Shown one piece after another: positions 6 to 64,000 of a stretch of 64,000 bases of DNA. The stretch lies in IMG/VR virus record IMGVR_UViG_3300031994_000086, positions 1-64,000 of that record. The stretch is one strand, 5' to 3'. How positions within the stretch are numbered: the first letter of the stretch is position 1; each line of letters opens with the position of its first letter. The notes under the pieces were generated by a model. The model ran no database searches, was not told the origin of the DNA, and saw only the letters and a list, made by a program, of their open reading frames with translations. A program made the translations under genes and the position numbers. This DNA comes from a virus.

Positions 6-386
6 GTGGATGTAAAGCGGTCAGTGAAGCGCAACGGCATCCAGTTTTATAACCTTACGATGGGAAAATACACAGTGGGTGTGGTGGCGTATGATGAAAG
101 TTGCGATATTCATTATCACGGTGAAACGAAAGAAACTGCGTTGGACGGTCTGCGCAAGAAGAAGGAAAAACTGGATTCGGACAAACAACGCTGGGCTATG
201 GAGGGCAGTGCCTTGCTGAATGCGAGCGAAGCCCATGACCGATGGGGATTCTGTTGGCCGGGTATGACAGAATTTGCCAATGCCATAGGCTTCGATGTTG
301 ACGGTTCATATAACCACCTTTCTGACCGACGTATTCTCGGTAAGTACCGCCGTGAACTTGAAATAGCAAAAATTATTAACTATTAA
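6..386 (+). CDS. hypothetical protein (accessory region, continues the box-led gene series seen at 57-64 kb)
   Basis: Six-frame ORF of 126 aa; same orientation as neighbours; no recognisable motif. Confidence 0.3.
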   Translation: MDVKRSVKRNGIQFYNLTMGKYTVGVVAYDESCDIHYHGETKETALDGLRKKKEKLDSDKQRWAMEGSALLNASEAHDRWGFCWPGMTEFANAIGFDVDGSYNHLSDRRILGKYRRELEIAKIINY

Positions 387-2297: not shown

Positions 2298-3434
2298 TTA
2301 TTCCTCTGCATCGCCGCCTAAAACATAATCAATAACCTTCCTGTTTGCTTCGTCAACCTTGCGTTGATTGAAGTCAACATACACACTCGTAATCTTAAAT
2401 CCGTTTGAGTGACCGAGAGCTGCTGCGATAGTCTCCATAGGGATATCCAGGGATGCAGCAATCGTTGCCCAAGTATGACGTGCATAATATGTTGTGATAT
2501 CTTTGCCAAATATCTTCAATATCTTGTTGGCTCTGCGCATCACATACATATAGTTGGAGTTTTCTCCATAAGAGAGGAGTTTTTTCTTTCCTCTATATCT
2601 GTTGATAATCTCCATCGCCTCAGGCTCTACCTTTACAGAATAGAGTCTACCCGTCTTACTTCTTCGGTATTCCAACCTGCCGTTTACTAACTGTTCAGGT
2701 GCCGCATTGAGAAGGTCAACGCTGTTTATGCCTATAAGATAGAACATAAGGACAAACAAATCCCTGTATTTGGATTGTGCGCTTGTCAGCTCCGTTTGCG
2801 AGATGATAAACCGTAGTTCTTCTATCGGAATGTTACGTTTTCTTGTCTCCTCAGAGGGGATGGAAAATTTGCGAAACGGGTAATTGTCCGTAAGGTCGTG
2901 TTTGATTGCCCAGTTCATTACAGAACGGATATTTCGCAGATGAATAGCCATAGAGTTGACCATCAGTTCATCATTACGCATAAAACGCACAAAATCTTCA
3001 AGCCACGTCACTGTTATATTCAATGAGGCGTGGCTATCAAAAGCATCAACCTTTCTCGATGTGGCTATATACATTTCTTTTGTACGTTTCGCCTTGCAAC
3101 TTTCTGAGTACATCATTATATATTCTGACAGAGATTTGTCAAACGCTCCTTTGCCGAATACCTTATCCATGATAAGCCTGCGAAGTTCGTCGTGTGGCAT
3201 CAGGGAGTTTTCAACGGCAATCTGCTCAATACGGTCAAGATATTCATTGAGTTTTATAGTCTTTGCCTTGTGATTACTCTCTGTGCGAGGGAACACACCG
3301 TCAGAGAAAACAGACTTGGTAAACAGACCAGTGTGTATGTAGAGCCTCTGAGGAGGTCGTGACACACAGACATATATAGGCATTGAGCCATCAGCACGTT
3401 TGCGTTGTTGATTTATAAACTGATATATTCTCAT
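2298..3434 (-). CDS. int: tyrosine site-specific integrase (phage integrase family)
   Basis: 378 aa; C-terminus 'ARHTWATIAASLDIPMETIAAALGHSNGFKITSVYVDF' matches the R...H-x-x-R...Y catalytic box II of tyrosine recombinases; lies beside a tRNA-like att core. Confidence 0.8.
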   Translation of the reverse strand: MRIYQFINQQRKRADGSMPIYVCVSRPPQRLYIHTGLFTKSVFSDGVFPRTESNHKAKTIKLNEYLDRIEQIAVENSLMPHDELRRLIMDKVFGKGAFDKSLSEYIMMYSESCKAKRTKEMYIATSRKVDAFDSHASLNITVTWLEDFVRFMRNDELMVNSMAIHLRNIRSVMNWAIKHDLTDNYPFRKFSIPSEETRKRNIPIEELRFIISQTELTSAQSKYRDLFVLMFYLIGINSVDLLNAAPEQLVNGRLEYRRSKTGRLYSVKVEPEAMEIINRYRGKKKLLSYGENSNYMYVMRRANKILKIFGKDITTYYARHTWATIAASLDIPMETIAAALGHSNGFKITSVYVDFNQRKVDEANRKVIDYVLGGDAEE

Positions 3435-3482: not shown

Positions 3483-3552
3483 CATTTCTTGCTCCAAAAC
3501 AAAAAACGCAAGACCTACAACAACCCATTGTAAAGCCTTACGTTTCGTGTTT

Positions 3553-3600
3553 CTGTCGGGATGACCAGACTCGAACTGGCGACCACACGCCCCCCAGATA
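3553..3600 (-). other. tRNA 3'-half-like segment (T-arm GCCAG-TTCGAGT-CTGGT plus acceptor-like CATCCCGA); candidate attP/att core
   Basis: Minus-strand 'GGTCGCCAGTTCGAGTCTGGTCATCCCGACA' has a canonical T-stem/loop but no matching 5' acceptor strand upstream, so it is a fragment rather than a gene; flanked by arm-type repeats and next to int. Confidence 0.3.
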
Positions 3601-4202: not shown

Positions 4203-4805
4203 TTATACTAATCTACCGTAGAAAGTGACACGGTATAGCTGTTTTATATCCTCTTTGCGAATAGAGAATGGTTTGTAATTATATGATGTACATATCAAAC
4301 TGTCGGCATCGTTATCATCTACTTGCAGATGCTTAATCATTCTATCGTAGGTGGTAATGATGAGGTATATTTTGTCAGGGTCTATGTATTGATTGCGCTC
4401 TACTTCATCCACCACGATGATATCGCCAGCCTTTATCACTGGCTCCATAGAGCATCCAACTACAGGGAAAGCATATTTGCCGTGCACACCGTCAATCTCT
4501 ATTCTGCCTACTGGCTTTTCATTAGCTATTACGGTTGCGAGGTCATACTGCCCTGCGCTTACCTGAACATCTTTATAATAAGGTATTCCTCTATCAGATA
4601 GATGTGCTACGGGTTGCGTAGTGGGGTAGAAATAAGACATCGGGAGTCCGAGGGCGGTGCTTAGTTCTTCTACAAGCCCCGTCTTAATGTCTTGGGCATC
4701 TAATTTCTGACTAAATGATTGCTGGCTGAGATTTAACAGCTTTGCAATTTCTGTTAGTGACTTTCCAGTTTTCTGGAGTTGCATTTTAAGTACTTCGCCT
4801 GTCAT
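4203..4805 (-). CDS. CI/LexA-like phage repressor (N-terminal XRE HTH plus C-terminal S24 peptidase)
   Basis: 200 aa; 'SLTEIAKLLNLSQQSFSQKL' HTH; 'VVGCSMEP' Ser nucleophile motif and a downstream Lys ('MIKHLQ'); divergent from early genes. Confidence 0.75.
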   Translation of the reverse strand: MTGEVLKMQLQKTGKSLTEIAKLLNLSQQSFSQKLDAQDIKTGLVEELSTALGLPMSYFYPTTQPVAHLSDRGIPYYKDVQVSAGQYDLATVIANEKPVGRIEIDGVHGKYAFPVVGCSMEPVIKAGDIIVVDEVERNQYIDPDKIYLIITTYDRMIKHLQVDDNDADSLICTSYNYKPFSIRKEDIKQLYRVTFYGRLV

Positions 4806-4873: not shown

Positions 4874-4890
4874 TATCTTTGCAAAAGATT
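4874..4890 (+). promoter_or_regulatory. Bacteroidota-type -7 promoter element (TAtcTTTG) in the repressor/early divergent region
   Basis: 'tatctttgcaaaag' matches the TAnnTTTG consensus; a hairpin 'ccgccaaacgcaaggcgg' (4944-4961) follows and may be an operator. Confidence 0.3.
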
Positions 4891-5053
4891 AAGTGACTTA
4901 TCTCTTGCATATCTTTCATCATCATTTTGCAAAGTTAGTTATTTTTTCTCATACCGCCAAACGCAAGGCGGTTTTGCAGACTTATTTATTGATACGACAT
5001 ACGATTGAGGGTAGGCTCTCAATTCTGAAAGGCTTTAACTTAGGGTAACACCT

Positions 5054-5407
5054 TTGTTTGAGCCTTTTTATTGTTTAACCGCAAAACATAAAATCATTAT
5101 GAAAGTACAAGACAACAAAATTCGCATCTCAGGCTTAGATGCCAAGATGATTGCCTCCTCTTTGAGGGGTTATGCCGATGATATTTACAACGGTAAGGAA
5201 TGTGAGAATTGCAAGGATGTGGAAATAGAGGTATGTAACGGACGTGTATATGTTGACTGCTCTATAACATATCTGACAAGCCGAGATATAGACGAGATAG
5301 ATATTGAGCGTGTTGATGCAATGATTTACGACCCTGTATATGACGCTCTATCAGGTAATGAGATAGCAGCAGAGGATTATGACACAATAAAGAAAGAGCT
5401 GTTATGA
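5054..5407 (+). CDS. hypothetical early protein (Cro-position gene)
   Basis: 117-aa ORF, first gene divergent from the repressor. Confidence 0.35.
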   Translation: MFEPFYCLTAKHKIIMKVQDNKIRISGLDAKMIASSLRGYADDIYNGKECENCKDVEIEVCNGRVYVDCSITYLTSRDIDEIDIERVDAMIYDPVYDALSGNEIAAEDYDTIKKELL

Positions 5408-5847: not shown

Positions 5848-6138
5848 AAGAAAGAATACAGAGAGAAAGAGACGTTCTTTGACTTATTTACATTAATAGC
5901 GATAACAGAATTAGATAACGTGGGTATAACCCACATAGTGACTAATACAACGTAAGCGAGAGAAAGGGATGCGGCAACAGCTGCAAAATCGGTAAGACAG
6001 CTTGCTTACGGCAATACCCCACTGGTGCAACAGGCAGCATAAGCCGTCAAGTGTCCTCATAGACAGACTGACGGAGGACGTGAGTTCGAGTCTCACGTGG
6101 GGAGCACTCTGTTGTTTAACTTTTAATGAATCAAGATT

Positions 6139-10467: not shown

Positions 10468-10490
10468 TTTAACCAAAAACAAATAACGCT

Positions 10491-10637
10491 ATGAAAATTA
10501 TTGTTATCGGAATATTTGCAGGTATAGGGATAGTATATTCCGCAACCAAAATCGCACAGGCTGTCCTGTGGGTAATGAAATACAAGAACACGATAGAGGC
10601 TTACGCCGAGTTGTTAAAGGCTAAAAAGGAGGACTGA
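10491..10637 (+). CDS. small single-TM membrane peptide (48 aa)
   Basis: Hydrophobic 'IIVIGIFAGIGIVY'; 'taatttaacc' box upstream. Confidence 0.25.
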   Translation: MKIIVIGIFAGIGIVYSATKIAQAVLWVMKYKNTIEAYAELLKAKKED

Positions 10638-10971: not shown

Positions 10972-11706
10972 ATGAAAAAATATGAACTTATCCCCTCGGA
11001 CAAGAAGGGATTATACCAAATAAAAGCAATATGTGACTTTGGTAACATCAAAACAGGCGATATAGGCGGTTACATCGAGAGCGAGGGGAACCTAAGCCAC
11101 GACGGTAACGCTTGGGTGTACGGTAACGCTAAGGTGTACGGTAACGCTGAGGTGTACGGTAACGCTGAGGTGTGCGGTAACGCTGAGGTGTGCGGTAACG
11201 CTAAGGTGTGCGGTAACGCTAAGGTGTGCGGTAACGCTATAGTGTACGGTAACGCTAAGGTGTGCGGTAACGCTAAGGTGTACGGTAACGCTGAGGTGTA
11301 CGGTAACGCTGAGGTGTACGGTAACGCTTGGGTGTGCGGTGACGCTTGGGTGTACGGTAACGCTAAGGTGTACGGTGACGCTGAGGTGTACGGTAACGCT
11401 GAGGTGTACGGTAACGCTGAGGTGTGCGGTAACGCTAAGGTGTGCGGTAACGCTTGGGTGTGCGGTGACGCTGAGGTGTGCGGTAACGCTGATTATATAG
11501 TTTTCAAAAATTGGTGGAGCAGCGGCCGATACTTCACGTGGACCCGCTCTAACAACAAGTGGGCTGTAGGTTGTTTTTACGGCACAGGTGAGGAACTGAT
11601 AGCCAAGGCATACGAAGACAGCGAGAAGTCGGGGTGTGAATATGAGCGTATAGTCAGGTATGTGGAAGAAATCCTAAAGGGAACCATAAATGAAAAGAAT
11701 GAATAA
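10972..11706 (+). CDS. hexapeptide tandem-repeat protein (about 21 copies of V-[YC]-G-[ND]-A-[EKW])
   Basis: 244 aa; strong SD 'aaaggagg' upstream; near-perfect 18-nt DNA repeats; unique N- and C-terminal domains. Confidence 0.5.
   Translation: MKKYELIPSDKKGLYQIKAICDFGNIKTGDIGGYIESEGNLSHDGNAWVYGNAKVYGNAEVYGNAEVCGNAEVCGNAKVCGNAKVCGNAIVYGNAKVCGNAKVYGNAEVYGNAEVYGNAWVCGDAWVYGNAKVYGDAEVYGNAEVYGNAEVCGNAKVCGNAWVCGDAEVCGNADYIVFKNWWSSGRYFTWTRSNNKWAVGCFYGTGEELIAKAYEDSEKSGCEYERIVRYVEEILKGTINEKNE
11101..11490 (+). repeat. 18-bp tandem repeat array ('ggtaacgct[ag]aggtgt[ag]c') of about 21 units inside a CDS
   Basis: Visible directly; units differ at only 2-3 positions. Confidence 0.8.
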
Positions 11707-23363: not shown

Positions 23364-23861
23364 TTATTTCTTTAGTAGTTTTTCAATCATTGCTTTCATT
23401 TCCTTTGTGTCGGCAGCCTGTTTGTCTATAATGCTCTGCATCTCGTTCAGCCGTTTCTCATAGGCTACATTTTGCTGATACACTGGGTCAATGTTCTGCA
23501 ACAGTGCCGCACATTTCTTTTTCACTTCCTCGTGCATAGGCATAAGGCGCAGTGCTTCCTCGCTTCTTGCCTGTAGCATACGCACACCGTTCACTACATC
23601 TTCCTTGTTCGGAGTAATAAGCATAGCACCATCATTACTCATCGTCTGACTGAGGGAGTCCGTCAGCTCTATGCTCTGTGTCCTACCGCCAAAGTTTGCG
23701 GTAACATCAATAACAGATTGCAACTGCCCTTTAGCAATCTTTGCTTTGTCCTGTGTGATGTGCGGTGTACCTACATACGTCACAGTACCTGTTCCGACTT
23801 CTATCTTGTTGCAGTCAAGGATGTAAAGCGGATAGCCTTGTTTGAGTTCTTTGAATAACAT
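23364..23861 (-). CDS. hypothetical protein with C-terminal coiled coil
   Basis: 165 aa. Confidence 0.4.
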   Translation of the reverse strand: MLFKELKQGYPLYILDCNKIEVGTGTVTYVGTPHITQDKAKIAKGQLQSVIDVTANFGGRTQSIELTDSLSQTMSNDGAMLITPNKEDVVNGVRMLQARSEEALRLMPMHEEVKKKCAALLQNIDPVYQQNVAYEKRLNEMQSIIDKQAADTKEMKAMIEKLLKK

Positions 23862-23919
23862 AATGCTTTTGTTTTAAGTTAAGGGCGAGCCAAGCATAAC
23901 CCGACTCGCCCGAATAGTC

Positions 23920-24591
23920 TTACGGTGTTGTTGTGGTTGTTTTCAGCGAGTTTATGATGTCTTGTGTCTGGTTCAAACGACCGACCTCGTCACGGAGCTG
24001 CTGAATGGTTGTAGCCTGTTCGAGTTGCTTGCTATTGCACAGCCAATCGAGGACTTTCTGTGTGTTCGCTGTGTCATTGGCTGCAAGCATCTGACCTTGC
24101 TGCTGGATAAGATAGCCAATGTTGGCGAAGCCTGCCTGCATGGTGTTTGTCTGCTGACAGTTAGCCAGTTGGTTCTGATAGCCCTGCTCCAGTGTCGCAG
24201 TTTTCATCTGACAGCAACAGTCCTTCATACCCAGAGCGAAAGAGTTAAGACTGGTGTTTACGTCTCCTATCTGCGCTCCTATCTGTGTAAAGCCTGCCTG
24301 TGTCTGCGCTTGTGCAGCGTTAGCTGCCATCTGTCCGCTCAGTCCGTCTATACGGCTGTTTACTCCACTGATACTACCCATCAGCTGTGCCTCCTGCTGA
24401 CCTGCGAGTATCTGACGGCTCAAAGAGTCAGTACCTTGTGTAGCTGCCATAGCTGCTGCTCCTCCAGCGTTGTTATTACCGAACAGTCCACCGTTACCAA
24501 GCATAGCACCGAGGAAACCACCGAAACCAGCACCGAACAGGTCGCCCCAGCAACCGCTACCACCACCTGTGTAAATCTTTTCTGTGTCCAT
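23920..24591 (-). CDS. Gly-zipper / Gln-Asn-rich protein with CCC motif
   Basis: 'GGGSGCWGDLFGAGFGGFLGAMLGNGGLFGNNNAGG' then a Q/N/A-rich low-complexity segment and poly-T tail 'TTTTP'. Confidence 0.4.
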   Translation of the reverse strand: MDTEKIYTGGGSGCWGDLFGAGFGGFLGAMLGNGGLFGNNNAGGAAAMAATQGTDSLSRQILAGQQEAQLMGSISGVNSRIDGLSGQMAANAAQAQTQAGFTQIGAQIGDVNTSLNSFALGMKDCCCQMKTATLEQGYQNQLANCQQTNTMQAGFANIGYLIQQQGQMLAANDTANTQKVLDWLCNSKQLEQATTIQQLRDEVGRLNQTQDIINSLKTTTTTP

Positions 24592-45419: not shown

Positions 45420-46025
45420 TTAGTTAGCGTCAACACGCTTCAACCATGCGAAGTTAGCGTCGCCTGAGGTCTCGATAGAACCAGAGAACTGAATAGCAAA
45501 CGGCTCTGTTGATGCGTTCTCATACAGAGGCTTCGCATACAGTGCGATGTTGCTGATAATCATAAAGTTCTCCTTGTTCTCGTCAAGAAGTCCTATTGTA
45601 CCAGTCACCTTCTGCATATTTACCACAACAGAAGCGCCTTCCCACTTCTTGCCTGTGCCAGCAGGAGAGTCACCACCAGTCATAGTCGCACCAGTGATGG
45701 TCTTGTAAGCAGTCTCGCCGAAAGCGAGCTTGATAACATCCTCCGCCTTTGTAGGTACGGTGAACTGTACAGTGAAGTCACCTGCCTCGGCTGATGATGT
45801 CCAGTCACCCTGCAAGCCGATAACCTTGTAGTGGTTGATTGTAGGGTCGTCCTGGGAAATCTGAAGTGTGTCAACGGTGACAGGGAGGTCGTAGTCCCAG
45901 TCAATACTGATAGCATTACCGCCTGCATCTGTTGCTCCGTCAAGGTCAACAGCAGTCTTGCAGAAGTACAGTGAGGAAAGTCCGTTAAATACGTCTTTCA
46001 ACTCGGTCTTTGTCTTAAAAGCCAT
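45420..46025 (-). CDS. major tail protein candidate
   Basis: 201 aa, T/G/S-rich, between the connector genes and the chaperones. Confidence 0.5.
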   Translation of the reverse strand: MAFKTKTELKDVFNGLSSLYFCKTAVDLDGATDAGGNAISIDWDYDLPVTVDTLQISQDDPTINHYKVIGLQGDWTSSAEAGDFTVQFTVPTKAEDVIKLAFGETAYKTITGATMTGGDSPAGTGKKWEGASVVVNMQKVTGTIGLLDENKENFMIISNIALYAKPLYENASTEPFAIQFSGSIETSGDANFAWLKRVDAN

Positions 46026-49195: not shown

Positions 49196-49221
49196 TGCTT
49201 TGTGGAATTAAAGGGTTAAAC

Positions 49222-49629
49222 TTAGATTACCCACACTATCTGTGGTACAGTGGTGAGGGTTTTCAATTTTGTCAGTACTGCGGCTGTGTACATATGCTCG
49301 TACAGCTCACCTGCATAAACAGCGGTGCCAGATGCGACAGTGTTTGCGTCGGTAATCACGATATCCTCTTGCAGATATGCGTTGATACCGAGAGAAGAGA
49401 AGGTCTCAGCACCAGTTATTGCTGTGTCGGTATAAGCTACGATAGCCTTCTTGCCGTTTGCATCGACATAGTACTTGATAGGTGTTCCTGCGGGTATCTT
49501 GCCAGCAGCAACCCAGTCAGACACATTCTCTACGATGCCGCCTGCAGGATAGACGTGGCGCACGCTGCGCCATACCTTAGAGGCGTGACCGTAAGTCTTG
49601 GTCTTAGCGTCAAATGTATTTCCGTTCAT
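49222..49629 (-). CDS. head decoration / hypothetical
   Basis: 135 aa. Confidence 0.3.
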   Translation of the reverse strand: MNGNTFDAKTKTYGHASKVWRSVRHVYPAGGIVENVSDWVAAGKIPAGTPIKYYVDANGKKAIVAYTDTAITGAETFSSLGINAYLQEDIVITDANTVASGTAVYAGELYEHMYTAAVLTKLKTLTTVPQIVWVI

Positions 49630-56409: not shown

Positions 56410-57184
56410 CCTCCTTCTTCTAATTCTATAACTCTAAATCCTAACTAATAAATAAACCGTATCAACTATATTTTACTTAAATAATTGACAAAAGTCAATT
56501 TTAACCCCGATAATTCATTTTTGTGATAAAAACACAAATCATACACACTGTATAACGTGCAGATAATCACATATATACAAATTTCGTGTGAACGAGTGAA
56601 CGCACCAGAGGGGGGCACTAAGAATTTCTACGAGCGTGAACACGAACGCAAAAACATAGTTTTTATTCATATAATACACAAAGTTAATAAATTCTACGCA
56701 ATTAGACAAATATTCATACATAAATAGAATTTTATTCATACATAACTGTGATAGAACTTGAATTATTTTACATTTTTTTAAGTATGTTAATTTAGGGAAT
56801 TTTAACAATTGGAAATTCGGAGAGAAAAATTTTGGGAAAAATTTGGGAGAAAAATTTTTGAAAAAAAATATTTAGGGGAGGTCAATAGGGGTCCCCATTT
56901 GACTTACATCAAGGGGGGTGTATACCCTTTCACTTAAAAACTATACATAAAGACGGCTAAATGTGCATAAAAGTAACATTTTGTTACTTTTTAGTGTGCG
57001 TTTGTGTCGCTTTGCAAGCGTTGGAACGTGGCGCATAATAAAACGTTAGTTTGTTTGTGTATGTGCGAAATTATGCGTACCTTTGTAATAGATAAAGGAT
57101 AAAACGTTATCCGATGAGTTAGCGACAATATAAAACAGGGAAAATTTCCCTAAAACATATTATTAACTTAAAAAATTTGAAATT
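56410..57184. promoter_or_regulatory. AT-rich ori/promoter-like region with short direct repeats and G6 tracts
   Basis: 'gggaaaaatttgggagaaaaattttt' repeats at 56815-56870; G6 at 56610 and 56913. Confidence 0.3.
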
Positions 57185-57712
57185 ATGACTACAAGAAACG
57201 AAAAGCAAATCAAGAATTTGCAGAAAGAAGAAACCAGGAAAGCAACGGTTAAAACTTCTAAGGGAGGAACAACAGACCCAACGGGCGAAAAGATGGAGAA
57301 AACAGACAAAGCGACCTTTGTCAAACTCTTTCAAAAAGTTGTTAACAATCATCTTTCCGAGATGCTCGCGGAAACTTGCAAACTTGCCCAAAGTAACGAA
57401 GAATTAAAAGAGGAGGGCGCAAAAATTGCAGAAATGCTGAATGAGTTGCAAAAGTATTCTTGCCGTTGGCAATCTTTAGGAGATGCAAGTTTAAGCAAAG
57501 ATTCTTTCAAATCTCGCATAATGAGAGAAGACGAAGAAACGGGCTATTATCTTGTAAGAAATGACGGCACAGTTTCCGAAATTGCGGGAAATTTACACTC
57601 ATTCTTTGTATATAACAAAGAACGTGAAAGGATTGCAGAACGTAAGAGGTTACAAGCGTTTAAGAATTTGAGCCGTGAAGAACAAATTAAACTGCTTTCT
57701 TCTTTGATGTAA
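57185..57712 (+). CDS. hypothetical K/E-rich protein
   Basis: 175 aa; 'attattaac' box at 57161. Confidence 0.4.
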   Translation: MTTRNEKQIKNLQKEETRKATVKTSKGGTTDPTGEKMEKTDKATFVKLFQKVVNNHLSEMLAETCKLAQSNEELKEEGAKIAEMLNELQKYSCRWQSLGDASLSKDSFKSRIMREDEETGYYLVRNDGTVSEIAGNLHSFFVYNKERERIAERKRLQAFKNLSREEQIKLLSSLM

Positions 57713-57736
57713 GACACACAGACAATTAAAACAAAT

Positions 57737-57762
57737 TAGGCGGATTATTTCCGCCTTTTTTG
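57737..57762 (+). terminator. rho-independent terminator (GGCGG-attattt-CCGCC plus T6)
   Basis: Visible directly. Confidence 0.5.
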
Positions 57763-58362
57763 TTGCCCTTTACCGTTTGGGGGTTTATGAGGTCCGAAAC
57801 CTCAAAAGGGCACAAATAACATAATAAAGCGTTTATATTCTGTTAAACGTATTAGCCAAGAAAGACGGCAAAAAGCCGTTTTTTTTGTTGTCCGTTCCAG
57901 GCGGATGCGAACAAATTGTTTTGCATCCGTATTAAGTCGGGAGATAAAAAGCGTAAATAATTGTTTTCGTCGCTTGTCATAGCGATGACAGCGCAAAGAA
58001 ACGTGCAAGTACTTGCAAGAATTGTTTGAGGAAAGCGTGCTATTTGTGAGATTAAAGAAGAAAACATTACGCAACAGAAAAAATCATATTCTTTTTTATA
58101 TGTGAAAAAATCGGAGAGAAAAAACGATAGAGAAAAAACTCCGCTGCGCTGCCAGTGCCGAAAGTGTGCGAAGTGGTTAAACGCACATAGTAGGCTAAAG
58201 GGAAATATTTTAGTTCACATTTTAATTTTCCCGTTCAGGTAAAAAATGATATTAACCACGAAACAGATTGTTATCTGTGGGATGGGTAGAATAAAGAAAC
58301 GTTTGGGAGAGTCCGACAAACTTCCTCCATCTATGGACAAATAGAAGGCAAAAACGGAGGGC

Positions 58363-58572
58363 GTGCATTTGTTTGTGCGCTCTCTACTAATTATTAACCA
58401 ATTAAAAGAAAAGATTATGAAAATAGAAGTTTATGACCCGATTACATTAATTGTTGTTTGGGAAAAAGATTACGAAGCACAAAACAAGAAAGATGCTATA
58501 ACGAGAGCTGCGTATGATTTCTGCGAAGAAACAAGTTTCAGCCCTGGCGATTTTAATGTACGTGTTAAGTGA
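58363..58572 (+). CDS. hypothetical small protein
   Basis: 69 aa. Confidence 0.3.
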   Translation: MHLFVRSLLIINQLKEKIMKIEVYDPITLIVVWEKDYEAQNKKDAITRAAYDFCEETSFSPGDFNVRVK

Positions 58573-58634
58573 TTTGCCTACGGCATACGGAGAAATCCGT
58601 GTGCTACTAATTGTTTAACTAAAAAACTAAGAAT

Positions 58635-58757
58635 ATGGATACAAGAGAAATGCTGTCCCTCGCCCTGGCGATATGTGCAGGCGTGGACGTTGACACAGAA
58701 AAAGAAGAAATTGCAAAGGCTTATCCCGTGGCATATTTTGATATGACACAGGGCTGA
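58635..58757 (+). CDS. hypothetical 40-aa peptide
   Basis: 'aattgtttaac' box 45 nt upstream. Confidence 0.2.
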   Translation: MDTREMLSLALAICAGVDVDTEKEEIAKAYPVAYFDMTQG

Positions 58758-58833
58758 GGATTTTTTGTCTGACTCGCTTTGTGGAAAATCACAAAGTGAG
58801 TACGATTGTTTAACCTACAAAGAAAAAAGAAAG

Positions 58834-59049
58834 ATGAAAAAGTTTGTATTTGCACTTATCGGTGTTGTAGTTCTCACAAGTTCCGTAAACCTTAGAAGCG
58901 CAGTGTATTTCGTGGAGGATGGCTATTATTTCCACCACAAAGGAGATTGCGCCCTGAAAGACAGAGGGAAAAGTGAAAAGAAAATCTACATCACTACGAC
59001 TGAGGGAGCGATAGAAAACGGCTACCACGAGTGCACGAAATGTCACTAA
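58834..59049 (+). CDS. secreted small Cys/His protein (signal peptide, C-terminal HxC...CxxCH)
   Basis: 'MKKFVFALIGVVVLTSSVNL' signal peptide; hairpin+box leader. Confidence 0.35.
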   Translation: MKKFVFALIGVVVLTSSVNLRSAVYFVEDGYYFHHKGDCALKDRGKSEKKIYITTTEGAIENGYHECTKCH

Positions 59050-59133
59050 AATTGTGCCTGGGAATTTTTTGCCTGCTCAAATCGTAGAGAAATCTCGGTT
59101 TGAGTACGATTTTTAACTTAAAACTTAGAGATT

Positions 59134-59310
59134 ATGATTAAAAGACAAATTCTTGCGGCATTTTTGTTCGCACCGCTCATCCTTATCCTTACGGGACAAC
59201 TCTCTATGATGATTATCGGAGTTATTTATGCTGGGTGGCTATCCTCAAATGAAAATCTAAGACCATTTTACAGGAAATTGCTCGCTGATGTTGAGAAAAT
59301 GTTTCAGTAA
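59134..59310 (+). CDS. small two-TM membrane peptide
   Basis: 'ILAAFLFAPLILILTG...MMIIGVIYAGWL'; hairpin+box leader. Confidence 0.3.
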   Translation: MIKRQILAAFLFAPLILILTGQLSMMIIGVIYAGWLSSNENLRPFYRKLLADVEKMFQ

Positions 59311-59395
59311 TCTGTGCCTGGGAATTTTTGCCTTGCTCGGAGCAAATGAAAATCTTGCTCTGAGTACGATTGTTTAACCTAAAAAAGAAAGAATT

Positions 59396-59872
59396 ATGAA
59401 TAAAAGATTTGAAACTTACACAAATTCTCTCACTCCGATGAAAAAGAAAATCGCAGAGGAAGCCATCAGGGAATTTCTGGCTGGCGAGAAAGAGATAATA
59501 AAAAAGGTCGATAGCCCTAAGGCTGTTTATGACCTTTGCAGAGATTTGCAGTTAGAAAGCGACGAACACGCAGTTATTGTTCTCGCTAATCAGCGTTACG
59601 GACTGATTAGGAGAATGGAAGTAGCGAGAGGCGGACTGACGGAAACTCTCTTTGATGTTCGTGTGGTAATGCGTGAATGTCTGCTGAATAATGCCACCGT
59701 CTTATTCTTGGTGCATAATCATCCGTCTGGCGATACGATGCCGTCAAGAGAGGACGATAATCTGACAAAGAAAATGCAAGATGCAGCTCGTCTTCTGCGC
59801 ATCCATCTTGCCGACCACGTAATTATTGGTAACGGAAATTATTTTTCCTACCAAGAAAACGGGAAATTGTGA
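59396..59872 (+). CDS. RadC-like JAB/MPN-domain protein
   Basis: 'HNHPSGDTMPSREDDNLTKKM...DHVIIG' matches the RadC H-x-H-P-S-G...D signature. Confidence 0.7.
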   Translation: MNKRFETYTNSLTPMKKKIAEEAIREFLAGEKEIIKKVDSPKAVYDLCRDLQLESDEHAVIVLANQRYGLIRRMEVARGGLTETLFDVRVVMRECLLNNATVLFLVHNHPSGDTMPSREDDNLTKKMQDAARLLRIHLADHVIIGNGNYFSYQENGKL

Positions 59873-60121
59873 TTTTTTTGCCTCGGTTTTGTCTGATTTT
59901 TCGGACAGAACCACAAATAACCGAAGAAATATTTGCGGATTTTGAAAAACATCCGTACATTTGCACTGCAAACTTGCTTTTCAGGTTTGTCATAATTTCA
60001 AATTTTTAAGTTATTAATTAGGACATAGGGCTGTGAAGCTCTGTGTCCTTTTCTATGCCTAAATCTTACAAAGACGGTTACTTTGTAGGATTTCTTATTA
60101 TTAACCAAAACTATAAGAAAT

Positions 60122-61240
60122 ATGATTACGAAATTAGGAAAAGCAGACAATCTGTTTATGCTTGGCGCAAACGGAATGGAAGAACTTGAAAGAGTCCATA
60201 TTGGTAAAGGTACGAAGATTTACGCTTACGGCTTTGCCATGAGCGAGCAGTATTTCGTCGTCTATGATGATGAGATGCACGCAGTAGAGATTTGTACGGG
60301 AAATCCTGACGAAGTTTCCGAGACAGACCTTGAACGCTATTTCTCAGAGAAAAAGACGCTTGACGATACTACAAGACCAATTTCTAAGCAGTTCGGTATC
60401 GGTTTCTATTATGACGAAAGCGGAGAGATAATCCCTGATGACGTTATAGAGAAATCCCTAAAACGTGCGGAAAATCTTGCAAACCTAAGAAAGCGTGTGG
60501 ATGATGAGAAAAAACGCAAGGACGCAGAGACAAAGGAAAATCTGCCGAAGTTATATCCGTATCTCACACGATGCGAGATGTACGACTACAAGACGTGCGG
60601 AAAGAATATCCGTACAGAGTTGAAAAAGAACTTCCCGAAAACAAAATTCTCTGTCAAGTTCAGCCGTTTCAGCGGTGGTAATTCTTACGATATCACATGG
60701 ACTGACGGACCGAAGGCAGAAGATGTTGACGCTATCGTGCGAAAATATCAAAACAAACACCCTGACGAGTATTCTATGGGTGACTATTGGGACGAGAAGC
60801 AGAGCATCTTTAATAAAATGTTCGGCTCTGTCGGCTACGTGATGACAGAACGTTGTATCTCTGACGAAGCTGTGGAAAAGATACGTGCAGAATACTCTGA
60901 CCTTACTGACGATAACGCACAGAACTACATTTTCAAGGATGAAGATGCAGAGCATATTCAACGCCATATGCGTTGTTGGTCAGTGAAAGATTTGTTACGC
61001 CAAATCGCCTATGGTAGAGATTTCCAGGAGCCAGAGAAGAAGCAAGAAACCGTCTGCGTAAAAACTGACGGTCTGCAGATTGTGGAGTATTCCGAAAAAG
61101 CGTTTGCCGTTATCGGTAACACAAAGGAATACAAAGATGATTTGAAAAAACTCGGTGGTCGTTTTAATGCTCGCTTGTCTTGCGGTGCGGGATGGATATT
61201 CAGCAACAAGCAGAGAGAAGCCGTTGAAGCGATTATCTAA
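60122..61240 (+). CDS. hypothetical 372-aa protein (polyvalent-protein-like accessory domain?)
   Basis: No catalytic motif recognised; box leader. Confidence 0.4.
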   Translation: MITKLGKADNLFMLGANGMEELERVHIGKGTKIYAYGFAMSEQYFVVYDDEMHAVEICTGNPDEVSETDLERYFSEKKTLDDTTRPISKQFGIGFYYDESGEIIPDDVIEKSLKRAENLANLRKRVDDEKKRKDAETKENLPKLYPYLTRCEMYDYKTCGKNIRTELKKNFPKTKFSVKFSRFSGGNSYDITWTDGPKAEDVDAIVRKYQNKHPDEYSMGDYWDEKQSIFNKMFGSVGYVMTERCISDEAVEKIRAEYSDLTDDNAQNYIFKDEDAEHIQRHMRCWSVKDLLRQIAYGRDFQEPEKKQETVCVKTDGLQIVEYSEKAFAVIGNTKEYKDDLKKLGGRFNARLSCGAGWIFSNKQREAVEAII

Positions 61241-61307
61241 GCCTGTAATGCCGGTGATGCCTTGCGGTGTCACTGACAGCCATATTATTAACCAAAAAGG
61301 AAAGATT

Positions 61308-61697
61308 ATGAGAACAATGGACAAATTTGACAGGATTGCTCACTCTATGGGCTTTACTCCAACTTATACGGGTAGTAATATCCGTTCCTTGTATTCTTAC
61401 AACAGGAAAAATGCAAAGGGAGAAGCCTTGCAGATTGATATGTCTGTAAGCAGTGGTGTGACTCTGCCTACTACGTGGCTGAAAAAAGGCTACACGAAGG
61501 AACTTATCACCGATTGGTGGTGTGTAGATACATTCGTCACGAACAAAGACGGAGAGTGCTACAAGGACTATGACCCTACGTGCAAGCCGAGCGACGACGG
61601 AAAACGGTGGGTGGTAGATTTTGACTGGCACCTGAAAGCCACAGAAGAAAATTTCGTGAAACTGCTGACGGAGATACTCAGACGTTTCAACGGATAA
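61308..61697 (+). CDS. hypothetical protein (start adjusted to the box-led ATG)
   Basis: In frame with the listed 61155 ORF; 'attattaacc' box 18 nt upstream. Confidence 0.4.
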   Translation: MRTMDKFDRIAHSMGFTPTYTGSNIRSLYSYNRKNAKGEALQIDMSVSSGVTLPTTWLKKGYTKELITDWWCVDTFVTNKDGECYKDYDPTCKPSDDGKRWVVDFDWHLKATEENFVKLLTEILRRFNG

Positions 61698-61766
61698 GCC
61701 TCAGAGCGGAGATATGGAAACGTATCTTCGCTTTCTTTTTAAGTATAACCATAAAATTATAAGAGT

Positions 61767-62420
61767 ATGAAAAAAGAAAGTATTGACAAACTGCAGACTA
61801 TCTACAGAGAACTCATGCAGATTGAGGAAACGACACTCGCAGAAATGATAACAGAGGTTGTTCGTGCAGAAACAGTAATCACGAAAGTGGGCAAATTCTC
61901 TTTCTATGACTTTGCATCAAAGGAAGCGTGTAGAGAAGTGATGCAAGGAGTATATCACGATGGCGGCTTCAAAGTTGCGTCAGATGGGTATATCCTTATC
62001 GCTATTCGTGAAGAGTACGACAAGGACTTTGAAGGAAAAATCCTTGCGAAGGACGGCTCTTTCATAGAACAGCGTTATCCACGATGGAGAAGTGTCATTC
62101 CTCAGGAAGAAGGGGAGTTTTACGAGATAGACGAAAGCAAATTCACTGAGCAACTTGCTAAGATACGTGCAGAGTATAAGATGCAGTATGTAAAAGCCAA
62201 GCGATGGGATAGTTCCTGGGTAGTGAAGATTGGTGGCGCATACTATTCTGCCGAGTATTTCGCAAGGGTGCTTACGGCAATGAAGTATATCGGCATTACA
62301 AAGGTGCAGATAACAGAGCGCAATGTGCTCTTGCACAAAAGTGACGATGCAATTCTGATACTGATGCCGAGGTACATCACAGAAAATGATGTTGCCGACT
62401 ATTCAGTTATTGAACTCTAA
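61767..62420 (+). CDS. hypothetical protein
   Basis: 217 aa. Confidence 0.4.
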   Translation: MKKESIDKLQTIYRELMQIEETTLAEMITEVVRAETVITKVGKFSFYDFASKEACREVMQGVYHDGGFKVASDGYILIAIREEYDKDFEGKILAKDGSFIEQRYPRWRSVIPQEEGEFYEIDESKFTEQLAKIRAEYKMQYVKAKRWDSSWVVKIGGAYYSAEYFARVLTAMKYIGITKVQITERNVLLHKSDDAILILMPRYITENDVADYSVIEL

Positions 62421-62487
62421 GCCTATGATGGGACAGAATAAATCTCTGTCCTGTCAGCCATTATTAACTCAAAAAATAGAAAGAATT

Positions 62488-62808
62488 ATGAAACGATTAC
62501 AGGATTTTACAAAGAGCGACCTCGCAAAGTTGCGCAAGGAGATAGTTTTGAACTCTCTCTATGTGCACGACTTCGAGAACTCTTTTGGTATTTGTGCGGA
62601 GAGCGTGTGCGCTTTCTTTGACGGTTACTTTGAAAACATCTGTGAGATTGCCGCAGAAGATAATTTCAAGTGGAGTTATGAAAAGAATTACAGAGATTTT
62701 CTTAACAAGTATGATACTATTGAAAATCTATATTCTTGGCTATATTGCTTTGAAGATTTTTCTTGGGTAAAGTACGAAAATGAAGAAGAATATAGGAAGG
62801 TAGCATAA
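62488..62808 (+). CDS. hypothetical protein (start adjusted)
   Basis: Hairpin+box leader at 62430-62487. Confidence 0.35.
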   Translation: MKRLQDFTKSDLAKLRKEIVLNSLYVHDFENSFGICAESVCAFFDGYFENICEIAAEDNFKWSYEKNYRDFLNKYDTIENLYSWLYCFEDFSWVKYENEEEYRKVA

Positions 62809-62894
62809 AGACACAACATAACAAGTAGCCTTAGGGCGGTAAGCGAGTGAGATACTTGCGCCGCCTACTATTATTAACCATACAAAAAGAAAGA

Positions 62895-63362
62895 ATGAAC
62901 ATGAAAAAGTTACAAGAGTATTGCTCTAATTGTTGCCAAGAGGTGACGATAGATGCTGAGTTCAAGATGCAAGTTTGCCCTAATTGTGGTAAAGTCATTC
63001 TTCCTTGCTCTATGTGCGACATGGATAGCGCAAAATGTAATGCGTGCAAACTGAGAGTGCAAGACACCCCATACGAGGTTTACCACAATTACCCACCTAT
63101 CCACGTAGAAGGTCTGTACTATTTGGATGACAACGACAACAAAGTCACTCCATTTAGTATCTACTTTTCTTCGGATTTGCGCATTTGGCGAGATGATGTG
63201 AAAGAAACTCACGGCCGTGCATACACGATGTACGGAGGTGCGCACGGCACTACTCTCGCTCCTGTGTATCTGCCTGACGGCACACAATACAGAAATGAGG
63301 ATTTGGCAAGCGTTTCCGCTTACTACAAAAATGGTATTATATCAGATTTTCATCACGAATAA
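62895..63362 (+). CDS. zinc-ribbon protein (CxxC x3)
   Basis: 'CSNCCQ...CPNCG...CSMC...CNAC'. Confidence 0.4.
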   Translation: MNMKKLQEYCSNCCQEVTIDAEFKMQVCPNCGKVILPCSMCDMDSAKCNACKLRVQDTPYEVYHNYPPIHVEGLYYLDDNDNKVTPFSIYFSSDLRIWRDDVKETHGRAYTMYGGAHGTTLAPVYLPDGTQYRNEDLASVSAYYKNGIISDFHHE

Positions 63363-63374
63363 AAGGAGGGTGTT

Positions 63375-63551
63375 ATGAACTACCAACAGAGAAAAGAAAA
63401 TGCCAGAGCAAAGGCTATTGACTGGCAGTCGAAAGCAAGCGAGGAGAGAACATCTTACTATGACCTTGCAAAGATTGGAGAGTATTTTTACAAACTTGGT
63501 AAGCGTTACGGACTTCTGAGAGAGTTCCGCACAAACGCCATACCTTGTTAG
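63375..63551 (+). CDS. hypothetical small protein
   Basis: SD 'aaaggaggg' upstream; 58 aa. Confidence 0.25.
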   Translation: MNYQQRKENARAKAIDWQSKASEERTSYYDLAKIGEYFYKLGKRYGLLREFRTNAIPC

Positions 63552-63619
63552 TGCCTATGCCTGAGCAGAAAAAACTGCTTGGGCAACTATTGTTTAACTA
63601 ATAGAAAGGAAAAAGAATT

Positions 63620-64000
63620 ATGAAAACATTAGACGAAATTATTAACAACGAGAATTACACAAAGTTGAATGGCGCATTAGTTGACCGTAGTATTGAACTT
63701 GCAGGAAAAATCAGAGAGGCTATGCAGTCGGCAGAGATAGAAGAAATCGGTGATTATTCTATCCGCACGGTTAGAACCCGCTCAGGGTTCAGCGATACTG
63801 CTTTATATATAGAGGCGATGGTGGATAGTAGTAACTGGGGGGCTACACCCGAATATCACAGTCTCGAAACTTCTGGGAGTGGTTACTATACTGGTGATTT
63901 CAACTGTTGGATACAGGCAGCTGCTGGTAAAGACAGACTAAAATTCCTCAACGATGCAAAGAGCATCTTAGAAGAAATAGAAAAAATCAAACAGAAGAGA
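63620..64000 (+). CDS. hypothetical protein, 3' end truncated by the window
   Basis: Hairpin+box leader at 63560-63619; the ORF runs to the window end. Confidence 0.35.
   Translation, partial: MKTLDEIINNENYTKLNGALVDRSIELAGKIREAMQSAEIEEIGDYSIRTVRTRSGFSDTALYIEAMVDSSNWGATPEYHSLETSGSGYYTGDFNCWIQAAAGKDRLKFLNDAKSILEEIEKIKQKR

Follow-up and report, generated by a model that had tools for sequence, protein, structure and literature searches.

What does a short leader do that recurs, in nearly the same form, before one small gene after another of a phage genome? The question arises from a 64,000-nt stretch of viral DNA, i.e. positions 1 to 64,000 of the IMG/VR record IMGVR_UViG_3300031994_000086, referred to below as the window; all coordinates are those of the window unless another contig is named. 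An original prediction, made from the letters of this DNA alone, had described a hairpin, a short box and an A-rich spacer preceding the ATG of at least 15 genes, most of them in an accessory island at 57-64 kb. Related phages were found through homologues of the RadC protein encoded in this island and the contigs that carry them (RadC 50-92% identical), and are cited here by contig number. The analysis revealed that the cassettes constitute a real, conserved and start-associated family that is previously undescribed in Rfam, in the paper on LoVEphage (one of the closest described phages) and in the full-text literature on such elements in Bacteroides phages. As to function, we favour, as a tentative reading that falls a little short of probable, independent initiation of translation at the level of the mRNA, with a stabilising or insulating hairpin and with a side role of the cassette as a joint for recombination.

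Within the cassette, a 10-nt box with the consensus WWTKWTTAAC can be distinguished. In a profile anchored on the AAC only these 10 nt are conserved and nothing further upstream, and motif sampling over 84 spacers, a check proposed together with the original prediction, converged on T[G/T][T/A]TTAAC with a near-invariant AAC. The sequence ATTATTAAC occurs eight times in the window, always on the + strand (0.80 expected; none of 100 shuffles reached eight), and ATTRTTWAAC six times (0.78 expected). In its two length variants, ATT[AG]TT(T)AAC is located on the + strand at 372, 5070, 57159, 58390, 58610, 58805, 59369, 60097, 61284, 62460, 62870 and 63589, and four near-variants lie on the same strand at 1414, 6112, 59109 and 61741. 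In 20 of the 88 window genes (0.87 expected), on both strands and always in gene orientation, the core TTAAC has its end 13-22 nt upstream of the ATG, so that the recurrence reported for at least 15 genes is borne out and proves to be larger. Genes marked in this way include those for the cI-like repressor, the cro-position protein, the ERF recombinase and the major capsid protein. A weight matrix built from distant relatives only retrieved 17 window genes, with 1.03 expected.

The box keeps a nearly fixed distance to the start codon. Its end lies 15-21 nt from the ATG at nearly all sites, not 6-25 nt as first proposed, with the copy at 372 as an exception (10 nt), and in 69 elements of five phages the C of AAC is a median of 17 nt from the ATG (interquartile range (IQR) 17-18 nt). 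All of the island starts named before (57185, 58635, 58834, 59134, 59396, 60122, 61308, 62488, 62895 and 63620) were confirmed, and one, 58417, had been missed. Among the proposed early starts, 391 has an exact box (10 nt) and 6139 has TTGTTTAAC, while those at 10491 (TTTAACC) and 15642 (TATTAAC) carry the core at the right distance; 14199 is weak, with ATTATTAAT 30 nt upstream. Box-bearing starts that were absent from the earlier list are 1095, 1440, 5099, 4805 (− strand, cI-like), 23861 (− strand) and 49195 (− strand, capsid). The box is present at 60 of 84 junctions that have a spacer and at only 3 of 23 tight junctions. Copies without any hairpin were found at 64055 (a window-equivalent position on contig L002, which overlaps the window), at 1075-1079 and 10469-10473, and at 8804 of L009.

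In 868 kb of Prevotellaceae DNA with 748 called genes, the box stands at the right distance before 2.1% of these putative host genes, against a background of 1.8%, and a general host start-site feature is ruled out by this background-level frequency. The box is likewise absent from other Bacteroidota-type loci carrying RadC. Judged from these sequences, it is phage-specific, and its restriction to phages leaves room for a phage-encoded factor.

Hairpins had been described as the usual upstream partner of the box, and a stable one is indeed found before every island box; for 84 family members the median folding z-score versus shuffles is -3.2. Spacers of 60-70 nt prevail in the gene arrays of five related phages, with a sharp length peak at 60-69 nt (46 of ~120 junctions), and their parts follow one another there in the order stop codon, hairpin, optional AGTACGA, box, A-rich leader and ATG. 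The hairpin begins a median of 5 nt after the stop codon, with a median stem of 12 pairs and a median loop of 6 nt, and its distance to the AAC varies between 0 and 26 nt. AGTACGA is frequent after the hairpin in the relatives, and either AGTACGA or CTACTA occupies this position in the window phage. The mRNA-sense fold is more stable than its complement in 69 cases versus 14, out of 84 (p = 5e-9). Among substitutions between the stems of orthologues, pairing was kept in 14 of 18, mostly via G.U intermediates, and a further 27 substitutions fell at unpaired positions. Most of the hairpins are not intrinsic terminators, so read-through is expected, because few T residues follow the stem (on average 1.07 within 4 nt and 2.7 within 8 nt).

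Three of the intergenic regions had been noted to share their flanks and to differ in their hairpins, which was taken to mean that structure rather than sequence is kept. Both points hold. In this shared-flank subfamily (GCCTGGGAATTTTTTGCC ... GAGTACGATTGTTTAACC) the stems between a fixed CTC and GAG vary by compensating changes, and 90.9% of the cells are paired, compared with 77.6% in shuffles, none of which reached the observed value in 500 trials. The covariation score (0.485, versus 0.243 in shuffles) is likewise above that of every one of the 500 shuffles, and slid controls gave 23-46%. The mimicry of tRNA T-loops, proposed for two hairpins, stands for GTTCGAGTC at 6084 (+ strand), before the box at 6112; the second copy of GTTCGAGTC, at 3568 (− strand), is an attP-like 3′ end of tRNA-Pro beside the integrase gene and not a leader hairpin, and T-loop mimicry is not a property of the family. 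A tRNA-like 3′ half extends over 6017-6108 (+ strand), directly before the box and the ERF gene, and consists of the T-arm GTGAGTTCGAGTCTCAC and the acceptor-like GTGGGGAGCA; it was not called by ARAGORN, and a tRNA search found none in the window. Across the whole window no Rfam family reached the gathering score, and at E<=5 the island yielded only two matches, both at chance level.

Further short motifs adjoin the hairpins. In the window phage and L003, GCCT recurs between stop codon and hairpin, 0-8 nt from the former and immediately 5′ of the latter (TAAGCCT...), e.g. at 61241, 61698, 62421 and 63555. Distant relatives have AACTCT or AACTTT in its place, with a conserved stem base formed with the ...AGT of AGTACGA. 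A variant module was observed in the island of BI-TP1, a cultivated relative (L012, 9840-12338), composed of a hairpin, ATTATTCACCC or TTTCACCC, and TTTAAA(N)TTTG a few bases before ATTATG.

The leader between box and start codon is A-rich at defined positions. Of 84 elements, 74 have A at -13, 64 at -12, 62 at -14 and 67 at -3, and T stands at -1 in 76 and at -2 in 68; the A residues at -13, -12 and -3 are start-site determinants known from measurements in F. johnsoniae (PMC6847099). By prediction, the arms at -60/-50 and -40/-30 are paired and the region from -30 to +20 is accessible. The motif AGAAAG is common at about -13 to -5 in leaders of the window phage (58417-63620) and of L003. It may be able to base-pair with the very 3′ end of 16S rRNA in Bacteroidales (..CCUCCUUUCU). 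A strong Shine-Dalgarno sequence (AAGGAGG or AAGGAG) precedes a subset of the genes, including that for the primase, with starts at 10972, 11869, 12484, 18241 and 63375 on the + strand and at 46025 and 56403 on the − strand. Bacteroidia ribosomes are reported to be blind to this signal unless they are without bS21 or bS18 (PMC13000457), and the phage may have two classes of start sites.

Canonical Bacteroidota promoters (TTTG, 19-21 nt, TAnnTTTG) are located at the head of the main operons, at 4874, 50363/50424, 57078 and 59956 on the + strand and at 4937, 32907, 50350 and 56686 on the − strand. The promoter at the head of the island (57078-57085, +) consists of TTTG, 20 nt and TACCTTTG and lies 99 nt before the first island gene, while the -7 element of the cro-position promoter, TATCTTTG at 4874, is ~190 nt upstream of the box at 5070, and the promoter upstream of the LPD29 gene (59956-59963, +) contains TACATTTG. 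Downstream of these three promoters (57078, 59956 and 4874) the box lies inside 5′ untranslated regions (5′UTRs) of 94 to ~215 nt, and the first island gene of L004, L007 and L009 likewise has its box inside the 5′UTR of a canonical promoter. The leader of the LPD29 gene comprises the promoter at 59956, ~55 nt, a terminator-like hairpin (60020-60049) with TTTTCT and then its cassette, an arrangement that is kept in L003, L013 and L014 and could represent a short leader RNA or an attenuator.

The cassettes themselves are devoid of TTTG/TAnnTTTG, and the AAC-anchored profile shows no conservation from -25 to -8, no TA at the position equivalent to -11 and no TTTG at -33. Only the box copy at 58801 (TACGATTG) is within one mismatch of TAnnTTTG, and the other copies are out of register. 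A canonical promoter is therefore ruled out by the register and by the missing -33 element; given this register and the SD-less leader, the box had rightly been distinguished from the TAnnTTTG -7 element and from a Shine-Dalgarno sequence. Across arrays of 10-13 kb with 20-30 genes there are almost no internal canonical promoters. In the window, the first island gene is followed by strong terminators (57738-57756 and 57865-57879) and then by a non-coding gap. Gaps of 500-700 nt before the array were observed in the window (57713-58416), L004 (7284-7818), L007 (7679-8194) and L009 (7529-8220). That of the window contains the direct repeat GAGAAAAAAC twice (~58112-58135), and the motif TCCATAATTGA is common to L004, L007 and L009. 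Such a gap could be an origin, a small RNA gene or the promoter of the array.

The relatives share this layout: the primase gene occupies one strand, and on the other a canonical promoter leads into a first gene that is closed by a strong terminator and followed by a non-coding gap of ~500 nt and 20-30 small genes. Comparison of the window with L003 revealed that every edge of a synteny block falls at a box or at an ATG. At 58573-58626 the spacer shares 96% identity with its equivalent in L003, which stands before an unrelated open reading frame (ORF), and the left edge of a 3.1-kb synteny block coincides with the cassette of the RadC gene (59336-59395). The box and leader of 62488 and of 63620 are reused in L003 before other ORFs, the hairpin and the leader of the latter cassette being joined to different partners, and one extra gene cassette is inserted there at the box of 62895. 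Searches beyond these contigs gave little: megablast of the island against GenBank phages produced no match; in IMG/VR a single relative (39%) turned up for the LPD29 protein, at a locus that lacks the box, and neither the primase nor an 18-mer of the element had a match; and the LPD29 protein had no match in GTDB genomes.

From these data we infer a mechanism in which a few canonical host-type promoters (57078, 59956, 65191/65460, the last two window-equivalent positions on L002, and 4874) would start long transcripts that run through the array of small accessory genes and early genes. Between genes that are not coupled, each module of 60-70 nt would then provide a stop codon, a stable hairpin, the optional AGTACGA or CTACTA, the box (WWUKWUUAAC in the RNA) and an A-rich, unstructured start site of the Bacteroidia type. 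The hairpin would stabilise or insulate the neighbouring messages and cause at most a weak attenuation of read-through. The box and the A-tract may form a loading site for the SD-blind 30S subunit of the host and bS1, with the box acting by itself, in the manner of the UUGUUUAAC enhancer region in the leader of T7 gene 10, or together with a phage factor, so that each small ORF would be initiated independently. Because the module is conserved and the ORFs are not, it may double as a patch of homology for the exchange of gene cassettes. Among the functions offered originally, a translation signal fits best, because the core keeps its register with the start codon rather than with the hairpin, lies inside long 5′UTRs and is accompanied by Bacteroidia start-site determinants; a promoter or a regulator site is possible, and antitermination is unlikely on copy number.

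Several observations weigh against the translation signal. The box is at background in Prevotellaceae genes, where a pure ribosome signal might be expected, although the T7 epsilon enhancer, too, is seldom found in E. coli genes. The TAAC is nearly invariant and in this resembles the target of a sequence-specific protein more than a bS1 site. The scarcity of the box at tight junctions is equally explained by a promoter, and the sub-array at 58417-59872 follows two strong terminators, with no canonical promoter found between these and the sub-array. A more specific version, which we hold to be rather improbable, treats the box (and AGTACGA in the relatives) as a lineage-private sequence signal that would replace the missing Shine-Dalgarno interaction in an SD-blind Bacteroidia host and recruit or position the 30S subunit at a fixed 18 nt from the start. 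The contact on the 30S side would be a ribosomal protein, an rRNA segment, or a phage-encoded adaptor or repressor. If true, a private signal of this kind could let the phage switch an array of ~20-30 anti-defence or early genes on or off at the level of translation.

Could the box act at the level of transcription instead? It is unlikely, though a serious possibility, that it is a phage-specific, non-canonical promoter of the -7 type, with initiation at the A of AAC and a 5′UTR of ~19-20 nt; the hairpin would then attenuate or end transcription of the gene before it, which would make the cassette a genuine counterpart of the T4-type PeSL, and the polymerase would be that of the host, either with a phage factor or at a weak constitutive promoter. 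PeSLs share the layout and the genomic setting (PMC2839356), the arrays are nearly free of internal canonical promoters, the box is phage-specific, and no canonical promoter was found between the two strong terminators and the sub-array behind them. A start at AAC would also give a 5′UTR close to the modal 23 nt of B. thetaiotaomicron (PMC7366714), and TACGATTG, present in three elements, matches TAnnTTTG at 7 of 8 positions at a suitable distance, in one of them with a -33 TTTG. This reading has to contend with conservation that is limited to 10 nt, with no conserved TA or -33 element and with TA in the right register absent from most copies. Moreover, no sigma factor or RNA polymerase was found among the ~50 window proteins scanned, at least three long 5′UTRs of canonical promoters contain the box, an IQR of one nucleotide for the distance to the ATG is unusual for promoters, and the ~30-36 nt from hairpin to ATG are too short for a two-element promoter plus leader. 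Still less probable is a leaky intrinsic terminator (very unlikely in our estimate), in which the hairpin is followed by a T-rich box that is an interrupted U-tract and recurs through copying by recombination. A simple consensus scan called six hairpin-plus-box units terminator-like, and genuine T-runs occur at 60020-60049, at 61703-61734 and in the hairpin before 5070; set against these are the low T counts after the stems, an invariant AAC in place of T, the register of the box with the ATG and not with the hairpin, and the sites at which the box has no hairpin. Antitermination signals (of the nut or put type) occur once or twice per operon, and they were ruled out on copy number, as the box precedes twenty genes.

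A site for a phage-encoded factor that binds or cleaves there and co-regulates the gene set was also considered, for the box and, in the relatives, for AGTACGA; we judge it doubtful, whether as a stoperator-like DNA repressor site, a T4 RegA-like RNA repressor site or a RegB-like nuclease target. The motifs are lineage-restricted, asymmetric and always in gene orientation, and copies precede both the cro-position and the cI-like genes. AGTACGA is 10- to 20-fold over-represented, with 21, 16, 12 and 10 copies on the + strand of L004, L007, L009 and L016, respectively, where ~1 is expected, and 0-3 on the − strand. Its sites (L004, 8464-8992; L016, 9767-9825; L007 and L009; 58799, 59103 and 59363 of the window) are found behind hairpins, in clusters with a spacing of ~20 nt and immediately downstream of some start codons (ATGAAGTACGA), a pattern reminiscent of a protein-binding site in DNA or RNA. 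In T4, start-region motifs of ~30 early mRNAs are the targets of RegA and RegB (PMC3014915), and SAS/ESAS have been proposed as sites for a host or phage product (PMC3203893). Operators, however, need no fixed 17-18 nt to the ATG, and no candidate factor emerged: the first island gene has a canonical promoter and a terminator of its own, but that of the window phage shares no homology with those of L004, L007 and L009, which rules it out as a shared regulator. An antisense-RNA version was dropped as well, because the stretches complementary to the box in the non-coding gap (TGGTTAAAC at 58174, and 11 nt in L009) have no equivalent in L004 or L007. An integron-like array, with the hairpins as attC-like folded sites for the small tyrosine recombinase, deserves almost no credence. 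In its favour, the ORFs are small, uniformly oriented and promoter-poor, and the sites of 60-70 nt between them vary in their stems but keep their ends. The attC pattern RYYYAAC is matched by GTTTAAC and GTCTAAC, the last gene of the array encodes a tyrosine recombinase of ~275 aa in the window phage as well as in L003 and BI-TP1, and the breakpoints are at the box. Yet there is no inverted partner GTTRRRY across the hairpin, whose 5′ flank is GCCT or AACTCT, the box is 3′ of the hairpin, where attC would have GTTRRRY, the ATTATTAAC copies do not fit RYYYAAC, and in BI-TP1 the small recombinase adjoins a ParA-like gene, which fits dimer resolution. Together, the readings beyond translation, promoter and regulator amount to a small probability.

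Between 57 and 64 kb at least 12 cassettes, all on the + strand, could be distinguished. The first has a hairpin at 57136-57152, the box ATTATTAAC at 57159-57167, an A-rich leader and the ATG at 57185. It is followed by one with three G.U pairs in its hairpin (58356-58385), then CTACTA, the box (58390-58398) and ATG 58417, and by a third in which a hairpin with a GAAA loop (58582-58605) and CTACTA precede the box ATTGTTTAAC (58610-58619) and ATG 58635. The next three carry AGTACGA: hairpin 58772-58801, AGTACGA 58799-58805, box 58805-58814 and ATG 58834; hairpin 59076-59104, AGTACGA 59103-59109, box ATTTTTAAC 59109-59117 and ATG 59134; and, for the RadC gene, hairpin 59336-59364, AGTACGA 59363-59369, box 59369-59378 and ATG 59396. 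The cassette of the LPD29 gene comprises a hairpin at 60061-60093, a box at 60097-60105 and ATG 60122, and the eighth a hairpin at 61252-61275, a box at 61284-61292 and ATG 61308. A hairpin of true terminator shape (61703-61734, with TTTTT) and a degenerate box, AAGTATAACC (61741-61750), characterise the ninth (ATG 61767). The last three are composed of hairpin 62426-62456, box 62460-62468 and ATG 62488; of hairpin 62834-62866, CTACT, box 62870-62878 and ATG 62895; and of hairpin 63558-63585, box ATTGTTTAAC 63589-63598 and ATG 63620.

Outside this segment, ATTATTAAC at 372-380 (+), 10 nt before ATG 391, marks the far end of the island on the circular genome. The leader of the small tyrosine recombinase gene contains a hairpin (1381-1410), the box TTTATTAAC (1414-1422) and ATG 1440, and that of the cro-position gene a hairpin with a T-run (5020-5069), the box ATTGTTTAAC (5070-5079) and ATG 5099, both on the + strand. 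Before the ERF recombinase gene (6062-6138, +) the tRNA-like hairpin with its GTTCGAGTC loop is followed by the box TTGTTTAAC (6112-6120) and ATG 6139. On the − strand, the leader of the major capsid gene (start 49195; leader 49196-49264) has a hairpin at ~49225-49264 and TTAAC at 49215-49219, 19 nt before the ATG, and that of the gene starting at 23861 (leader 23862-23925) a hairpin and TTAAC at 23878-23882, 16 nt before the ATG.

The window contains most of the genome of a temperate siphovirus-type phage with a Bacteroidota host; this genome measures ~67 kb and is circular or circularly permuted. Contig L002 is identical to it over 13,879 nt, extends 3.5 kb beyond the window end and re-enters the window start. 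Consequently, the accessory island, placed at 57-64 kb before, is larger: starting at the promoter at 57078, it continues beyond the window end and wraps to position 2273. Its final gene (1440-2273, +) encodes the second, small tyrosine recombinase (~275 aa), and most of its ORFs have no Pfam match. The integrase gene (2298-3434, −) and the small recombinase gene lie end to end; the same pair is found in L003, and in BI-TP1 the pair adjoins the ParA-like gene. The genome further encodes an S24-type cI-like repressor (4203-4805, −), the ERF recombinase, a large terminase, a portal protein, the major capsid protein and a D5-type primase. LoVEphage, BI-TP1 and PV4-TP1 are the closest described phages (large terminase 58% identity), and BI-TP1 has the same gene order as the window phage. 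Directly upstream of the integrase gene, an attP-like segment (3545-3600, −) corresponds to the 3′ end of tRNA-Pro genes. As its 24-mer matched 117 genome stretches, nearly all from Prevotella, Segatella and other Prevotellaceae, the host is probably a relative of Prevotella, an assignment made from the att site only, and the phage probably integrates into tRNA-Pro of such a host.

The choice of start codons in Bacteroidia in the absence of a Shine-Dalgarno signal is partly understood (A at -3, -6, -12 and -13, low structure, bS1), and the conserved 10-mer that precedes dozens of unrelated phage genes at -18 offers a candidate cis-element amenable to mutation. The cassette also marks gene boundaries among small orphan ORFs, some of which are of anti-defence type (RadC, LPD29, WYL_2 and ddrB-ParB), so that it aids the annotation of start codons and shows the points of cassette exchange. 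A compact expression module that is insulated from its context would be useful for work with Bacteroides and Prevotella.

How does the cassette compare with known systems? We regard it as the Bacteroidota counterpart of the PeSLs of T4-like phages (PMC2839356, PMC4122927) and of the mycobacteriophage SAS/ESAS. Like the cassettes, PeSLs are small composite intergenic modules in a hyperplastic region of orphan ORFs, in which a stem-loop comes first, followed by an expression signal, a ribosome site and the ATG, and breakpoints of indels or replacements between close relatives fall inside the module. The stem-loop of PeSLs acts in termination or attenuation of transcription, and exchange between adjacent PeSLs gives rise to mini-circles. 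A PeSL, however, carries a consensus host sigma-70 promoter, an AT-rich UP region and a Shine-Dalgarno sequence in ~100 bp, whereas the phage cassette measures 60-70 nt, has no host-consensus promoter but a 10-mer locked to the ATG, varies and covaries in its stems, and operates in an SD-blind host.

The SAS/ESAS of Cluster K mycobacteriophages (PMC3203893) are asymmetric repeats in ~11-19 copies of one orientation, at a fixed short distance before the starts of a subset of unrelated, mostly non-structural genes; they too occur in temperate siphoviruses and are absent from the host genome, and about half or more of the copies stand behind inverted repeats with a variable spacer. SAS itself is GGGATAGGAGCCC, 3-7 bp from the start and with a Shine-Dalgarno core, in contrast to the AT-rich box at 17-18 nt with no such core, and the ESAS repeats are conserved in sequence with no support for RNA pairing, while the stems described here differ, covary and favour the RNA strand. 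What the SAS/ESAS do has yet to be tested (PMC12699233). Cluster A mycobacteriophage stoperators (PMC3203893) are similar in their many asymmetric intergenic copies, oriented with transcription in a temperate phage, but they are DNA sites bound by a repressor, and their distance to the start codon is not fixed. The T4 RegA/RegB sites (PMC3014915) are short motifs in the start or intergenic regions of ~30 early mRNAs that come under joint post-transcriptional control, and those of RegA are A+U-rich and unstructured (AAAAUUGUUAUG); RegA sites overlap the AUG, unlike the box, RegB cuts GGAG, and a RegA/RegB homologue was not identified here.

The T7 gene 10 leader with its epsilon enhancer (UUAACUUUA) likewise has a 5′ hairpin, AAUAAUUUUGUUUAAC, a purine-rich tract and the AUG; the enhancer increases translation of the gene behind it, and pairing with 16S rRNA has been proposed for it. 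An epsilon-type UUAAC(UUUA) ~16-24 nt before the AUG is found in the box, a likeness at the level of sequence only; the nonamer TTGTTTAAC is identical in both, with the C of AAC at -21 in T7 versus -18 to -22 here, and both are phage signals that are rare in host genes. The T7 leader differs in having a strong Shine-Dalgarno sequence downstream, in its single copy and in a hairpin that forms the 5′ end of a T7 RNA polymerase transcript. On these grounds, the T7 gene 10 leader may be taken as a lead, i.e. as a candidate precedent for the combination of a hairpin with an AU-rich enhancer.

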